56,566 nucleotides of DNA. Source: Promethearchaeota archaeon (lineage in GTDB: Archaea; Asgardarchaeota; Lokiarchaeia; Sigyniarchaeales; SOKP01). The first letter of the stretch is position 1; the number at the start of each line of letters is the position of its first letter. Of the stretch, positions 23,821-30,168 are shown piece after piece. The translations under genes and the position numbers were made by a program. The notes under the pieces are model-generated. The model was not told where the DNA came from, did not search any database, and saw nothing but the letters and a program-made list of their open reading frames with translations. The stretch spans positions 1 to 56,566 of the forward strand of contig JAGXNO010000023.1 of assembly GCA_019894975.1 (NCBI GenBank), written 5' to 3'.

Positions 23821-24366
23821 TTAATTTAATTTTAGTTCAATATCAAATTTTTTGAGAGCGTGAACAACTAGTTTTTTGAAAGCTGCTTCAACATTATCAC
23901 CGAGTTTTGCACTAGTCTCAATGTAATCACTTGCATGAATTTGATCTGCTAAAATTTTACCATTTTCTGTAGATACAGCGTCTTTATTCCTTAAATCGCT
24001 CTTTTTTCCAATTATAATATAAATTCCATCTGATCGTGCAAATTTCTTAAAATCTTCGAGCCATTTTGATTGAATTCGATCAAAGGTCGATGAACGAGTT
24101 ATATCAAAGACCAAAAGACAAGCAATGCATCCTTCAAAAAACATCTTTCGGGTTAAATCGTATTTATCCTGCCCGGCAATGTCCCATATTGCTAGTTGAA
24201 TCTCAAATTCCTCAATTTTTAGCTTTTTCATCACAATATTGACACCTAGTGTTGGTTGATAATCATCTTTAAAACTCTCATCAATATAACGATTAATTAA
24301 CGATGTCTTACCAACGGCACCATCACCAAGAAGTGCCAATTTCAAATTAATCTTTTTTTTTACCAT
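23821..24366 (-). CDS. Rab-like small GTPase with atypical G4 (KKSD)
   Basis: GDGAVGKT, WDIAGQ, ETSAK; G4 reads GKKSD instead of GNKxD. Confidence 0.9.
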   Translation of the reverse strand: MVKKKINLKLALLGDGAVGKTSLINRYIDESFKDDYQPTLGVNIVMKKLKIEEFEIQLAIWDIAGQDKYDLTRKMFFEGCIACLLVFDITRSSTFDRIQSKWLEDFKKFARSDGIYIIIGKKSDLRNKDAVSTENGKILADQIHASDYIETSAKLGDNVEAAFKKLVVHALKKFDIELKLN

Positions 24367-24383
24367 TTTATATTAACTCATTA

Positions 24384-24812
24384 TTAAATATCCAAAAGAG
24401 TTAAGCCAAATTGAGAGTCTTCAGCTCTGTTTAGCTTTTTATCAATTTCAAAAATATAAACTTCACCTGTTATTGAGACTATGCTTGGTTGGAACAAATG
24501 TCCCCCCAATATCGTATAGTCCTTTGTGCCCATAGAGGCATGGAGGTGAACTATTGGTTCCCCATCTTTAAATGATATATTTCCCATACATGAAACTAGT
24601 TCAACGAAGCTATTATATTCTTTTCTCAAATATTCTTTAGATTCGAAGTCAAAATACCCTAAAGTGAATTTTTTCAAAGCTCCAATACAATTTATCAAAC
24701 CTGATTTGATATTATAATCTTTTATCATTTTGATTATAGAATCAATTAAATCTTCATCAGGCTCAACTTTTCCTATTATAACACGTTTAATCTTGGATTC
24801 AATAGACCTCAT
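24384..24812 (-). CDS. PPC/DUF296 domain protein
   Basis: ELVSCMGNIS...HLHASMG...GGHL. Confidence 0.9.
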   Translation of the reverse strand: MRSIESKIKRVIIGKVEPDEDLIDSIIKMIKDYNIKSGLINCIGALKKFTLGYFDFESKEYLRKEYNSFVELVSCMGNISFKDGEPIVHLHASMGTKDYTILGGHLFQPSIVSITGEVYIFEIDKKLNRAEDSQFGLTLLDI

Positions 24813-24876
24813 TATTACTTCTCAAGGTTCTTAATTTAAAACTTATTCTATATGAATTCTCAAACTCTATTTAAAC

Positions 24877-25428
24877 TTACTTATCTATTCCTATATTTAT
24901 TATAACTTGAGAGACTAATTTTCTGAAGGCATCTTCAACATTATCACCATTTTTGGCACTTGTTTAGATAAAATCACTAGCGCGCATTTCATCTGCAAGT
25001 CTCTTTCCGTCCTCTGTTGATACAGCAATAGATTCTTCTAAATCTATTTTATTCCCTATTAGGACGTAAGCTGGCTTTTTTTCAGAATATTTTTGTAAAT
25101 GTTTTAGCCACTTGGTTTCAATGTTTTCAAAGGTTGACTGCCTGGTAGCGTCATAAACAAATAAAGCTCCCATACATCCTTGAAAAAACATCGCTCGAGA
25201 TAGATCATATTTAGCTTGACCTGCAATATCCCATAGAACTAATCTTGCTGATAGGTTTAATTCTTCAACTTTTAGCTTTTTTACAACTAAGTTCACCCCA
25301 AGAGTAGGTTGATAATCCTCTTTAAAGCGATGCTGGATATATTGATTAACGAGAGATGTCTTACCGACTGCTGGATCTCCCAATAATGCTAATTTTAGTA
25401 CTAGTTTCTTCGGGTGATTTTCTGGCAT
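24877..25428 (-). pseudogene. Rab-like GTPase interrupted by an in-frame TAA (24964-24966)
   Basis: The frame continues after the stop as TSAKNGDNVEDAFRKLVSQVIINIGIDK*; TAA sits where the E of ETSAK belongs. Confidence 0.8.
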
Positions 25429-25585
25429 TTTTTAATTGTTCTCTTTAAATCAAATTTACATATCAAATAAATTCAGTTTTTTTATATTTGAGCCAAAATG
25501 GCAATTGTTATTCTTTGTGATAAAACATCTATCATCTAACTACCATCACTTTTTTAACATTTGATGTCCTTATTTATTATATAAC

Positions 25586-25663
25586 ATGGATGTGGATGCT
25601 ATGAGTAAAAAAACTAGTTTCTTAAAATTAATAGAAGTCACATCCATCATTATTATTAGGTAA
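25586..25663 (+). CDS. Putative ileS leader peptide MDVDAMSKKTSFLKLIEVTSIIIIR
   Basis: ATC ATT ATT ATT run just before AGG TAA, ~120 nt upstream of ileS; alternative start ATG at 25601. Confidence 0.75.
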   Translation: MDVDAMSKKTSFLKLIEVTSIIIIR

Positions 25664-25770
25664 TTTATTTACTCATGAAGTAGATTCTCGTAGCCTTTTT
25701 CCACATCCTGCTTCATGAATAACAAAGACCATGATTTTGTTCTTGTAAATTTAAATAAGAATTTTATTTT
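25586..25770 (+). promoter_or_regulatory. Candidate translation-coupled attenuator/switch of ileS
   Basis: Mutually exclusive pairings: 25586-25594/25639-25647 and 25601-25609/25668-25676; 25588-25605/25687-25708; hairpin 25673-25683/25708-25718. Confidence 0.7.
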
Positions 25771-25780
25771 AAAAATTTAA

Positions 25781-28669
25781 ATGTGTTTGAAAAGTAATGA
25801 TATGGTGAAAGATATGTCTTATAATGAAAAAGAAGTAGAAATAATTCAATTCTGGAATAAGAACCAGATTTTTGAAAAAAGTATAGAGCAGAGACCAGAG
25901 AATAAACCCTATGTGTTTTATGATGGCCCCCCATTTGCAACGGGGTTACCCCATTATGGTAATATCTTAAGTATTGTTACAAAAGATGTGTTTCCAAGAT
26001 ACTGGACTATGAAGGGGTACCGTTGTGAGAGAAAGTGGGGTTGGGATTGCCATGGTCTCCCAATAGAAAGTACTTGCGAAAAAGCCCTTAATATAAAACA
26101 AAAAAATGAAATTTATGAGATGGGTATATCAGAATTCAATGAATATTGTCGATCAAAAGTATTATGGAATGCCAATGAATGGAAAAAAATTGTTGAACGA
26201 ATGGGAAAATGGATAGAATTTGATAATTCCTATAAAACCATGGATAATACGTATATGGAAACCGTGTGGTATATTTTTAAGAAAATCTATGAAGAAGGTT
26301 TTGTCTATAAAGGTAAAAAGGTATTGTTTTATTGTCCGAGGTGTGAAACCCCCCTTTCTAACTTTGAAATTTCAATGGATAATAGTTATAAGGATGTTAC
26401 CGAAGAATCTATAACAGCAAAATTCAAATTGAAAGAAGATCCAAAAACATTTCTGTTAGCTTGGACTACAACACCTTGGACTTTAATAGGAAATGTGGCA
26501 TTAGCCATAAATAGTGATTTAGTATATGTTAAAGTGAAAGTTGATGATGAATTTTTAATTTTGGTTAAAAATAGAATGGATATTCTCAAGAATGAATATG
26601 AAGTAATAGGAGAATTCACCGGAAAAGAACTTTTAAATAAGAAATATGAACCTTTATACCAAATTTCTGATAGCTCCAACGGAAATGCTCACATTGTTAT
26701 TGATGGAGGTGAGGAAGTGCTTTCCGATGAAGGAACAGGAATAATACATTTGGCGATTTACGGGGAATTTGATTATGAGATGATAAAAAAATACAATTTG
26801 TCAATAATTCAACATATCGGTGAGCATGGCGAGTTGAAAAGTGGCCCAAATGATTGGATTGGGATGTGGTTTAAAGATGTAGATGGAAAAGTTTTGGAGG
26901 ACTTGAAGCAGAGAAACTTATTATTTCATTCAGAAGATTACACACATTCTTATCCATTTTGTTATAGATGTGATACTCCGCTAATTTACAATGCTCTTGA
27001 TGCGTGGTTTATAGATATTCAGCGATTAAAATCAAGACTCTTGGAGACTAATAAAAGTATTAAATGGTATCCTAAGGAGATTGTTAAAAGATACCAAAAC
27101 ATAATCGAAACAGCTCCCGACTGGTGTATTTCTAGAAATCGGTTTTGGGCGACAGCTATACCGATTTGGATGTGCGATGAATGTGATGAAATTAAAGTGA
27201 TTGGCTCAGTTAAAGAATTACAAGCGAGCGCAATCGAAGAGGTTCCTAACAGTTTGGATCTACACAAGCACATAGTTGATGAAATCCATCTAAAGTGCCC
27301 AAGTTGTAAAAAAGTCATGAATCGAATTTCAGAAGTTTTTGATTGCTGGTTAGAATCAGGATCAATGCCATTTGCTGCAAAACATTACCCTTTTGAAAAT
27401 GTGGAATGGTTTGGTATAAATTTTCCTAGTGATTTTGTTTCAGAGTACATTGGACAAGTAAGAGCATGGTTTTATTATATGCATGTAATATCAATTCTTG
27501 TAGTTAATGATATTCCTTTTAAAAATGTAGTTGTAAATGGTAATATTCTCGCTGAAGACGGAACTAAAATGTCTAAATCGAAGCGAAATTTTCCCGATCC
27601 AAACCTAATAATTGAGAAGTATGGTGCAGATGCTTTGAGAGTTTATTTATTATCATCACAATTAATGAGGGCTAAAGATTTAAATTTTAAAGAGGAAATT
27701 ATAAAACAAGTTTACCGTAGATTTAATCTATTACTAATAAATGTTCTAAAATTCTATTCAATGATTGAAACTAAGGATATAGAGACGGATATGCCCTTTT
27801 CAGACAATATCTTAGATAAATGGATTATCAGCTTGTTAAATATCTTAATTCGGAATGTTACTGAGAGAATGGAGGATTATGATACCGCGGAAGCAAGTAG
27901 GTTTTTCTTTGCTTTTATCGAGGACCTCTCCACGTGGTATGTTAAAAACAGTAGAGATCGATTTAAGAGTGAAAATATCAATGAAAAATCTTCTGCCATG
28001 AATACTTTATCATATGTACTTTCTAACTTGTCGAAATTACTAGCCCCTCTTACTCCGTTTATATCTGAGATGATTTACCAAAAATTAAAAGAAAGAGAAT
28101 TAGTTAATTTAACTTCTGTACATTTGGAATCGTGGCCAGAATATGATGAAAAGCAAATTACTCCATTGGTACATGAAAAGATGGAATTATCAAGAGAAGT
28201 TGTAAGGAGATCACTGGAATTAAGAGAAAATTCTAAGATACCTGTTAGGCAGATATTACAGAAAGTAATATTAAGGGGATTGTCTCTTGATAATGAATAC
28301 TTGCAAGTTATTGCAAACGCTATAAATGTTAGAGAGGTATTAATCGAAACAGGAGAGGAAACTGATCTTACAGTTGAACTAGATACAGAAATAACAGAAG
28401 AATTAAAACTTGAAGGTATAGCCAGAAATCTGATTAGAAATTTGAACAACTATAGAAAGAAAATGAAATTATCACCGAAAAATCGAATTGATCTATATAT
28501 AACTACAAAAAGTAAGGAAATTCTGGAATCACTTGAAATTCATGAAGAAAACATTAAAAAATTGATACAAGCAGATAATATATTTAAAAATATTGAAGGC
28601 AAGAGTAGTGTTAAAAAATTTAAAATAGATACTCACCTAATTGAAGCATATTTAGAGGTAAAAAATTAA
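25781..28669 (+). CDS. ileS: Isoleucyl-tRNA synthetase, IleRS2/eukaryote-like type (probable start 25814 after GGTGA)
   Basis: FYDGPPFATGLPHYGN, GWDCHGLP, WTTTPWTL, DWCISRNRFW, KMSKS. Confidence 0.95.
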   Translation: MCLKSNDMVKDMSYNEKEVEIIQFWNKNQIFEKSIEQRPENKPYVFYDGPPFATGLPHYGNILSIVTKDVFPRYWTMKGYRCERKWGWDCHGLPIESTCEKALNIKQKNEIYEMGISEFNEYCRSKVLWNANEWKKIVERMGKWIEFDNSYKTMDNTYMETVWYIFKKIYEEGFVYKGKKVLFYCPRCETPLSNFEISMDNSYKDVTEESITAKFKLKEDPKTFLLAWTTTPWTLIGNVALAINSDLVYVKVKVDDEFLILVKNRMDILKNEYEVIGEFTGKELLNKKYEPLYQISDSSNGNAHIVIDGGEEVLSDEGTGIIHLAIYGEFDYEMIKKYNLSIIQHIGEHGELKSGPNDWIGMWFKDVDGKVLEDLKQRNLLFHSEDYTHSYPFCYRCDTPLIYNALDAWFIDIQRLKSRLLETNKSIKWYPKEIVKRYQNIIETAPDWCISRNRFWATAIPIWMCDECDEIKVIGSVKELQASAIEEVPNSLDLHKHIVDEIHLKCPSCKKVMNRISEVFDCWLESGSMPFAAKHYPFENVEWFGINFPSDFVSEYIGQVRAWFYYMHVISILVVNDIPFKNVVVNGNILAEDGTKMSKSKRNFPDPNLIIEKYGADALRVYLLSSQLMRAKDLNFKEEIIKQVYRRFNLLLINVLKFYSMIETKDIETDMPFSDNILDKWIISLLNILIRNVTERMEDYDTAEASRFFFAFIEDLSTWYVKNSRDRFKSENINEKSSAMNTLSYVLSNLSKLLAPLTPFISEMIYQKLKERELVNLTSVHLESWPEYDEKQITPLVHEKMELSREVVRRSLELRENSKIPVRQILQKVILRGLSLDNEYLQVIANAINVREVLIETGEETDLTVELDTEITEELKLEGIARNLIRNLNNYRKKMKLSPKNRIDLYITTKSKEILESLEIHEENIKKLIQADNIFKNIEGKSSVKKFKIDTHLIEAYLEVKN

Positions 28670-28743
28670 CATCTCTTCTTTCAATCTCAAAATTAGGTTG
28701 CAACTCCGTAAAATTATTATATTTTTTTATTCTTTTCATAGTT

Positions 28744-30168
28744 ATGCTCAAAATCTATAATACAATGACAAGAGAGAAAGAAGTATTTAATCCTCTCGAA
28801 GAAGGCATTGTAAAGATCTACACTTGCGGCCAAACTGTTTATGATGATGTACATATTGGAAATGCAAAAACATACAGTTCGTGGGATGTGATAATACGTT
28901 ATCTACGATATAAAGGATATAAAGTACTTCATGTACAAAATTTCACAGATGTGGGTCATTTAACTGATGATGCTGATCAAGGAGAGGATAAAATTGAAAA
29001 AAGAGCACGGGAACGAAAAATTAACCCATGGGAACTTGTTGATAATCAAATTGAAGAGTATTGGCATGTGATTGATGATTTAAATATTAACAGACCAAAT
29101 ATTTCTCCCCGAGCGACCTCCCTCATTCCTGAAATGATTGACATTATTAAGATCCTCTTAGAAAAAGGCTATGCCTATGAAGTAGAAAGCAATGTCTATT
29201 ATGACGTTTCTAAATTCAAAGATTATACGAAGCTTTCTAAGTTAAAACTCGATGAAGAATCAGCAAAAGCACGAGTGGATCAAGATCCATTAAAAAAGAG
29301 TCCATTTGACTTTGCTTTATGGTTAAATGCTAAAAAGGGAGACCAAATGCATATTATGAGATGGAACTCTCCTTGGGGTGAAGGATATCCTGGATGGCAT
29401 CTTGAATGTTCCGTTATGTCGATGAAATATCTAGGAGAGACTATTGATATTCATTGTGGGGGAATAGATCACATCCCTACTCACCATCCAAATGAAATAG
29501 CGCAAGCTGAGGCTGCAACTGGTAAAAAATTCGTTCGAACATGGATGCATGCGGAATTCATAACTTTGAATGGCAAAAAAATGAGTAAAAGCCTTGGGAA
29601 TTATGTAACTGCTAGGGAATTAATTGATCAACATGGAGGTTTAGTAGTTCGAATGGGCTTAGTGCCTGGTCATTATAGATCTGCTGTAGACTGGAATCCA
29701 GATGTTATAGCAAATGCGAAGAAAAATGTTGAAAGAATTCAGAATAGCCTGAGTTTAATAAAAGACTCACCTGGGGGCACAAAAACTAATTTGAATCAAG
29801 CAATTGAAGAAGTACAAAAGTCTTTTGAAGAAGCTATGGATGATGATTTCAACACACCAAAAGCTTTTGCAACGATTCACGATTTCATCAAACAAATAAA
29901 TTCCTCATTAGATAATAAAAAAGACATCCTCAATAAAGCAAGAGAAGTTCTTGTTGAATTACTCGGAGTCTTGGGACTCGACTTCACTAAAAAGAAAGGA
30001 ATTGATGATGCAAAAATAGATGGCTTAATGGAACTCATTATTTCATTAAGGGATAAATCGAGGAAAGAAAAAAATTATGAATTGAGCGATGAAATTAGGG
30101 AAAAATTGCGGTCTACAGGCATTCAAATTGAAGATACTGAAGATGGACCACGTTGGAAAATGAGTTAA
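28744..30168 (+). CDS. cysS: Cysteinyl-tRNA synthetase
   Basis: CGQTVYD..HIGN, PGWHLECS, HHPNE, KMSKSLGN, DDDFNTP. Confidence 0.95.
   Translation: MLKIYNTMTREKEVFNPLEEGIVKIYTCGQTVYDDVHIGNAKTYSSWDVIIRYLRYKGYKVLHVQNFTDVGHLTDDADQGEDKIEKRARERKINPWELVDNQIEEYWHVIDDLNINRPNISPRATSLIPEMIDIIKILLEKGYAYEVESNVYYDVSKFKDYTKLSKLKLDEESAKARVDQDPLKKSPFDFALWLNAKKGDQMHIMRWNSPWGEGYPGWHLECSVMSMKYLGETIDIHCGGIDHIPTHHPNEIAQAEAATGKKFVRTWMHAEFITLNGKKMSKSLGNYVTARELIDQHGGLVVRMGLVPGHYRSAVDWNPDVIANAKKNVERIQNSLSLIKDSPGGTKTNLNQAIEEVQKSFEEAMDDDFNTPKAFATIHDFIKQINSSLDNKKDILNKAREVLVELLGVLGLDFTKKKGIDDAKIDGLMELIISLRDKSRKEKNYELSDEIREKLRSTGIQIEDTEDGPRWKMS

Follow-up and report, generated by a model that had tools for sequence, protein, structure and literature searches.

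Can an archaeon use the translation of a short, isoleucine-rich reading frame to adjust expression of an isoleucyl-tRNA synthetase? Leader-peptide attenuation is a textbook bacterial mechanism and needs coupled transcription and translation. In a full-text literature search of incomplete coverage we found leader-peptide attenuation described for bacteria only, and no archaeal report. The locus considered here lies on contig JAGXNO010000023.1 of assembly GCA_019894975.1, positions 1 to 56,566 of which (forward strand) are referred to below as the window; positions are numbered along it. An earlier reading made from the sequence alone had noticed a peptide rich in isoleucine codons encoded just upstream of an isoleucyl-tRNA synthetase (IleRS) gene, together with RNA segments that could pair in alternative ways, and had proposed ribosome-mediated attenuation in an Asgard archaeon. 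The host does belong to that group (Promethearchaeota, kingdom Promethearchaeati). Here we compare the locus with its relatives, and we consider it likely that the leader is a gauge, read by the ribosome, of Ile-tRNA(Ile) charging.

The leader region is a 350-nt gap with a small GTPase gene on one side (24964-25428, minus strand, divergent from the leader) and a 962-codon IleRS ORF on the other, in a window with a G+C content of about 32%. The divergent gene is one of two small GTPase genes with a TIGR00231 domain at 23821-25428 on the minus strand, separated by short unannotated ORFs; such paired small GTPase genes are a typical Asgard gene set. The window contains no tRNA genes. The product of the downstream gene scores 825.5 bits against the ileS equivalog model TIGR00392, for which the cut-off is 621.4, and the sequence-only reading was therefore right to call it an IleRS. 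It is not the housekeeping ileS, however, but an auxiliary, DPANN-like enzyme, which we call IleRS2 (gene ileS2). The genome has two IleRS genes, the other encoding a canonical archaeal enzyme of 1061 amino acids on another contig (G000:C142:53700-56900), and the canonical enzyme and IleRS2 are 37% identical.

Of the 54 species-level genomes of the genus, 30 carry ileS2, and it was found in none of the other sampled families of the order. The gene looks like a spare synthetase gained horizontally, because the closest relatives of IleRS2 outside the genus are from DPANN archaea (55-66% identity) and the next closest from CPR bacteria (about 50%); its patchy presence in the genus likewise points to a horizontal origin. 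A Shine-Dalgarno sequence, GGTG, is kept 7-8 nt upstream of the ileS2 start codon. The start codon itself is ATG in the window (25814-25816) and ATT or ATA in about 20 of the 30 orthologs (for example among loci L003 and L005-L013); at two loci, L009 and L043, an in-frame GTG is followed immediately by a stop codon, so that no canonical start is possible. This pattern suggests that the start codon of the spare synthetase is deliberately weak and non-canonical. The features of the leader and its surroundings are as follows.

25542-25559, plus strand: putative BRE/TATA element of the leader transcript, ACCATCAC followed by T6AACA here and ACCGTAA followed by TATTTTTTAGA in most orthologs
25586-25596, plus strand: E1, the 5' switch segment (N-TGGATGTGGA), of which TGGATGTGGA is invariant in 30 loci
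25598-25605, plus strand: 5' strand of helix b2, which includes the AUG of the upstream ORF (uORF) and pairs with 25687-25694
25601-25663, plus strand: leader uORF, 20 codons from a conserved ATG, ending I-I-I-I-R-stop
25639-25647, plus strand: E2, partner of E1 inside the uORF, overlapping the first codon of the Ile run
25646-25657, plus strand: Ile run of four codons, ATC ATT ATT ATT, followed by AGG and TAA; ATTATTATT is invariant in 32 of 32 loci
25673-25718, plus strand: hairpin H, with arms at 25673-25683 and 25708-25718 and a loop that holds the 3' strands of helix b
25687-25694, plus strand: 3' strand of b2, in the loop of H
25700-25708, plus strand: E3, the second partner of E1 (TCCACATCC), nearly invariant, at the 3' end of the H loop
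25721-25741, plus strand: small A/U hairpin with a U-rich 3' arm, conserved in the closest subclade only
25762-25770, plus strand: oligo-T block, T4-A-T4 here and T5-T10 in orthologs, 45-65 nt before the ileS2 start at all loci
25804-25816, plus strand: Shine-Dalgarno sequence and start codon of ileS2
25814-28669, plus strand: ileS2, the DPANN-like second isoleucyl-tRNA synthetase

Taken from this one genome the case is weak, since short ORFs with a run of at least four Ile codons precede about 38 long ORFs in this AT-rich genome, and the leader folds only modestly better than its shuffled versions (z = -1.99); the evidence must therefore come from relatives. Our comparisons draw on metagenome-assembled genomes of one genus, so that the orthologs are kin. 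A uORF is present at 32 of 32 ileS2 loci, comprising all 30 of the genus and two more divergent loci from a public genome collection. From the conserved ATG to the stop codon its frame holds no stop in any of 30 aligned loci, whereas the two alternative frames contain 109 and 65, and orthologs differ in length by 6 or 12 nt, which keeps the frame. Variation is free in the N-terminal half, but the Ile run at the C terminus is fixed: it comprises 3-5 codons, ends 0-1 codon before the stop, and lies within a final stretch of 12 codons of which up to seven specify Ile. Judged by these alignments, the leader is far beyond what chance would produce.

The sequence-only reading had given the uORF 25 codons. 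Read from 25586 to 25663 the frame does encode a peptide of 25 residues ending in TSIIIIR-stop, but its start is likely to be the ATG at 25601, which leaves 20 codons. We take 25601 as the start because the codon there is ATG in 29 of 30 aligned loci and GTG in the remaining one, whereas that at 25586 varies, being ATG in 4, GTG in 25 and CTG in 1 of the 30, and ACG in the divergent locus L113. E1 resembles a Shine-Dalgarno site for this start. It contains GGAUGUG, one mismatch from the ideal GGAGGUG, 6 nt upstream of the AUG, the same spacing as that of GGUG before ileS2; the 3' end of 16S rRNA in the genus, taken from another genome, reads GGATCACCTCC. No 16S rRNA gene was found in the assembly to which the window belongs. 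In the single-contig genome of the genus that carries locus L047, the archaeal 16S model matched over its last ~125 positions only (G022:C1:871810-871932), and the 16S rRNA gene of that genome may be interrupted or fragmented.

Transcription probably begins a few bases upstream of E1. We place the start there because bases of E1 and others 5' of the AUG covary (described below), which does not fit a leaderless transcript beginning at the uORF AUG but does fit the conserved BRE/TATA-like element about 32 nt upstream of E1. The T5 tract of this element and its flanking A are invariant in the 30 orthologs, and its position and conservation are consistent with promoter function. The same arrangement of CCGTAA and a T-rich stretch is shared by the sequences upstream of the ileS2 leader, of a second, leucine-rich leader discussed below, and of cysS, and may be the local form of BRE/TATA. 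The cysS gene, the only CysRS gene of the genome, lies 75 nt downstream of ileS2, and the element there (CCGTAAA and a T-rich stretch, window 28700-28746) is about 25 nt upstream of its ATG. This probably gives cysS its own promoter, and the spacing suggests a leaderless mRNA; the joint regulation of ileS and cysS envisaged in the sequence-only reading is thus doubtful.

That reading had sorted the RNA pairings of the leader into two sets: a set (a) comprising 25586-94/25639-47 and 25601-09/25668-76, and a set (b) comprising 25588-96/25700-08 and 25598-605/25687-94, which would invade an 11-bp hairpin (25673-83/25708-18, with a T5 tract in its loop), followed by a small hairpin at 25721-41. 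All of these segments are found at those coordinates, and an inverted-repeat scan recovers 25586-602/25631-47, 25601-16/25661-76 and 25669-83/25708-22. Across orthologs the first helix of set (a), E1:E2, pairs in 281 of 288 cells (97.6%) in 32 loci. E2 is variable at 7 of its 9 positions and a standard or G-U pair is almost always kept; double changes are of two kinds, four sequences having A-U in place of G-C and L113 having C-G in place of U-A. Moreover, E2 is written with codons that are rare in this genome, TCC (7.9% of Ser codons) and ACG (9.2% of Thr codons), which argues that it is constrained at the RNA level besides its coding role. The second helix of set (a), a2, was dropped: it pairs in 85.9% of cells, against 85.6% in column shuffles, and it crosses E1:E2, so that the two together would make a pseudoknot.

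Set (b) stands as a real structure that competes with hairpin H. E1 and E3 are almost invariant and paired in 98.9% of cells, so that the support for E1:E3 comes mainly from conservation and from a single compensatory event, an A-U to U-A change in L108. Covariation is plainer at b2, which pairs in 84% of cells as against 43-50% when the partner is slid. At the b2 pair 76-186 each column has changed at least seven times on the ileS2 gene tree and the pair is C-G or U-A in 26 of 30 loci; the near-identical loci L012 and L044 differ by such a double change. Hairpin H, paired in 95.8% of cells and extending up to 15 bp in most orthologs, has compensatory changes at several pairs (C-G/U-A/U-G and A-U/G-C) that arose independently several times. 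One of its pairs is always U-G, U-A or C-G, with columns that changed at least four and at least six times, and in L113 GAAG/CUUC is replaced by GAAAC/GUUUC. The RNAalifold consensus returns E1:E3 for the whole leader and H for the region after the stop codon. On this comparative evidence three helices are kept by evolution: E1:E2, helix b (E1:E3 together with b2) and H. A role for the small hairpin at 25721-25741 is uncertain. Ile-run uORFs and covarying helices upstream of ileS orthologs, the natural check on the original proposal, are thus found at the ileS2 loci of the genus.

The notion that the 5' segment has mutually exclusive partners is likewise upheld, the partners being E2 and E3: E1 can pair with either and never with both, the strand being shared. 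The 5' arm of H is just 4 nt away from b2, and E3 runs directly into the 3' arm of H, so that on steric grounds full helix b and full hairpin H should be incompatible. In most loci a gap of 1-2 nt is left between the end of E2 and the first ATT of the Ile run; in this genome E2 extends into the ATC codon. In equilibrium folding the alternatives are nearly iso-energetic, with mean probabilities of 0.28 for E1:E2 and 0.56 for E1:E3; when the footprint of a ribosome is masked, E1 shifts to E3 (0.77). Two features of bacterial leader-peptide attenuators are present, namely a conserved ORF with cognate codons (32 of 32 loci) and exclusive helices of which one strand would lie under the footprint of a stalled ribosome.

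A model for how such a leader might work is as follows. Transcription would begin a few bases upstream of E1, and a ribosome would initiate at AUG 25601 and read the 20-codon ORF, the sequence of the peptide mattering little except that the 3' end of the ORF is rich in Ile codons. Two states would be open to the RNA. In State I, E1 is paired with E2, right next to the 5' edge of the Ile run, and hairpin H folds downstream of the stop codon; in State II, E1 and the AUG region are paired with the two segments in the H loop as helix b. Whichever Ile codon of the cluster occupied its A site, a waiting ribosome would lie over E2, leaving E1 free as the loop of H emerges from the polymerase. Helix b would then form first, because synthesis of its strands in the H loop precedes that of the 3' arm, and State II would result. 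A ribosome that reaches the stop codon would uncover E2 and allow State I. By analogy with bacterial attenuators and with the T-box-controlled spare IleRS of Bacilli, State II would raise expression of ileS2 when charging of tRNA-Ile falls. We infer the stalling itself, the direction of the response (stall as the ON state, by the same analogy) and the output step.

The oligo-T block, 60-70 nt downstream of E3, may be a termination signal of the archaeal oligo-U type or, alternatively, a TATA box belonging to a second promoter, for ileS2; in the latter case it would loosen the link in cis between leader and ileS2. A canonical terminator, with a stem directly followed by a U tract, is seen in neither state: H is followed by AAUAA, and the oligo-T block lies about 50 nt beyond. 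Oligo-U is an archaeal termination signal, and archaeal termination needs oligo-U only, so that the bacterial criterion of stem plus U tract may not apply. We looked for a conserved stem at the oligo-T block, or a relay hairpin using the 3' arm of H, and rejected both, RNAalifold on 20 loci of the majority clade giving H only; alternative stems near the block can be drawn by eye in several loci. For the gating of U-tract or aCPSF1 termination suggested in the sequence-only reading, folding thus offers no clear connection between switch and oligo-T block. Sequestration of the ileS2 Shine-Dalgarno sequence, that is translational attenuation of the type of the mycobacterial Cys sORFs or ermC, was rejected likewise. 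Across 30 loci the mean unpaired probabilities of the ileS2 Shine-Dalgarno sequence and start are 0.30/0.44 in State I and 0.33/0.48 in State II, with no consistent change, and no conserved pairing partner for this Shine-Dalgarno sequence was found across the orthologs. Our claim is confined to the sensor and the switch; among possible outputs we would rank read-through of the oligo-U block first, mRNA stability second and translation third.

In a DNA search of the 54 genomes of the genus the leader was found only beside ileS2, with the exception of one fragment at a contig end. It stays with the gene in at least three upstream contexts (a divergent GTPase gene, another divergent gene and a co-directional gene of 390 codons). 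It is absent from about 40 DPANN and CPR loci encoding the same type of IleRS in similarly A+T-rich genomes; at 4 of these a short ORF does finish in a series of Ile codons, but neither E1 nor the leader peptide accompanies it. Nor is there an Ile-run ORF in the 157-nt gap upstream of the canonical ileS. A genome-wide family built on the E1 motif was considered and set aside, the other 14 copies lying in coding sequence, mostly at ferredoxin-type CxGCG. A search of 24800-26400 against 4227 Rfam families gave matches at chance level only, none of them inside the leader, and no T-box match up to E = 10.

Cognate-codon uORFs before biosynthetic genes, which the sequence-only reading had suggested looking for, do occur in the genus. 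We scanned the intergenic regions of this genome for short ORFs whose ends are rich in a given amino acid and then checked the hits across the genus, which gave three. A Trp-rich leader ORF (G000:C98:55032-55127, minus strand; loci L059-L088), with four Trp in seven codons within a GC-rich island, lies about 160 nt before trpB2 at no fewer than 27 of 30 loci. A Cys-rich leader ORF (G000:C87:83273-83401; loci L050-L055) lies 99 nt before a cysK/M-type gene at 6 of 8 loci; six of its last eight codons specify Cys, a covarying hairpin stands upstream of the Cys codons, and its start region is complementary to a segment just past its stop. A Leu-rich leader ORF (G000:C11:41654-41776, minus strand; loci L160-L179) closes with 3-7 Leu codons, has a long hairpin after it, and is separated by about 93 nt from the leuA-type gene downstream; it is conserved at 20 of 20 loci. 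Four cognate leaders in one genus would be hard to explain other than by amino-acid sensing via translation.

These observations bear on three other accounts of the locus. The leader might be a separate small transcription unit, a short mRNA or dual-function sRNA ending at the oligo-T block, with the ileS2 promoter in the block itself and any link to ileS2 in trans or through minor read-through. Such an arrangement would make sense of a T-rich block that lies 45-65 nt before a start led by a Shine-Dalgarno sequence, a normal distance for an archaeal promoter, and that is similar to the T-rich element upstream of the leader; it would also agree with our finding no conserved structure that could connect the switch with the start of ileS2. 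It sits badly, however, with a leader that is found only beside ileS2 and moves with it across neighbourhoods, with regulatory codons that are cognate to the enzyme, and with the three further cognate leader/gene pairs of the genus, and the block has no CCGTAA-like element of the kind seen in the other putative promoters. We consider this account unlikely.

Less probable still, in our estimation, is that a transcription factor binds E1, E2 and E3 as operator repeats in promoter DNA, the ORF and the RNA pairing being incidental. An open frame with in-frame indels would not be expected of operators, variation in E2 is strand-specific and tolerates G-U pairs, the neighbouring helices b2 and H have repeated compensatory changes, and E1 itself takes part in compensatory changes in L113 and L108. 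Nor is the motif seen again in any other intergenic region of the genome. What the operator account has on its side is the form of the sites: E1 has GTGGAT repeated in tandem, both E2 and E3 are inverted copies of E1, and E1 and E3 are nearly invariant, as is common for protein-binding sites. We give equally little credence to the idea that the uORF encodes a functional hydrophobic micropeptide co-expressed with ileS2, the Ile run being its hydrophobic tail. The last dozen residues are conserved and hydrophobic, as this would predict, but the N-terminal half is poorly conserved and changes in length, and the conserved part is fixed at the level of nucleotides, third codon positions and rare codons included. 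A peptide role would also leave unexplained why the amino acid of each of the Trp, Cys and Leu leaders corresponds to a product or substrate of the gene that follows.

Read as a charging gauge, the ileS2 leader has much in common with the class of E. coli attenuators to which pheM-pheST, trpL, ilvL, ivbL and leuL belong (general description in PMC1183508): a short leader ORF with a cluster of cognate codons, regulatory codons that adjoin (here overlapping by one codon) one strand of mutually exclusive helices and, in the case of pheM, a position before an aminoacyl-tRNA synthetase gene. It differs in that its host is an archaeon with a Pol II-like RNA polymerase, in that its alternatives lack a GC-rich stem with adjoining U tract, in that the long-range helix hides the leader's own Shine-Dalgarno sequence and AUG in a hairpin loop, and in that the regulated gene is a spare, horizontally acquired paralog. 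The leaderless poly-cysteine sORFs of mycobacteria (Ms5788A type; bioRxiv 10.1101/834739) provide a second parallel, since there too a pause on cognate codons at the end of the ORF remodels the leader RNA, and several such sORFs per genome form an amino-acid-specific set, as Ile, Trp, Cys and Leu do here. Unlike them, the ileS2 Shine-Dalgarno sequence has no conserved partner, and the uORF is probably not leaderless.

Putting a spare IleRS under the control of a tRNA-Ile charging sensor is a logic shared with the T-box-controlled ileS2 of Bacilli; in Priestia megaterium the spare IleRS2 is induced on a drop in tRNA-Ile charging (10.1101/2022.02.09.479832). A T-box binds uncharged tRNA directly and does not need translation, whereas the leader described here matches no Rfam family and its ORF constraints are not accounted for by a tRNA-binding RNA. 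Finally, as in the Rho-dependent attenuation of E. coli tnaC, the sensing codons stand at the end of the leader ORF beside the stop, where a held ribosome could shield downstream RNA from a termination factor. However, tnaC senses free tryptophan via the nascent peptide, and the archaeal factor would be FttA/aCPSF1 rather than Rho.

With its three sister systems, the ileS2 leader would extend leader-peptide attenuation to Asgard archaea. It would be an example of a horizontally acquired spare synthetase tied to the charging status of its host, and it offers an RNA that can be mutated to ask how the ribosome signals to an archaeal Pol II-like polymerase or to a termination factor. As a more tentative extension, which we regard as possible without favouring it, Asgard archaea may possess a set of gauges (Ile for ileS2, Trp for trpB2, Cys for cysK/M and Leu for leuA) with an output peculiar to archaea: the stalled ribosome would set an RNA switch, and the switch would govern whether the Pol II-like polymerase reads through oligo-U or FttA-dependent termination. 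The ileS2 leader would then serve as an alarm, turning on a horizontally acquired and possibly inhibitor-insensitive IleRS upon failure of the resident enzyme. If so, transcription attenuation proper, through coupled translation, would operate in the prokaryotes most closely related to eukaryotes.
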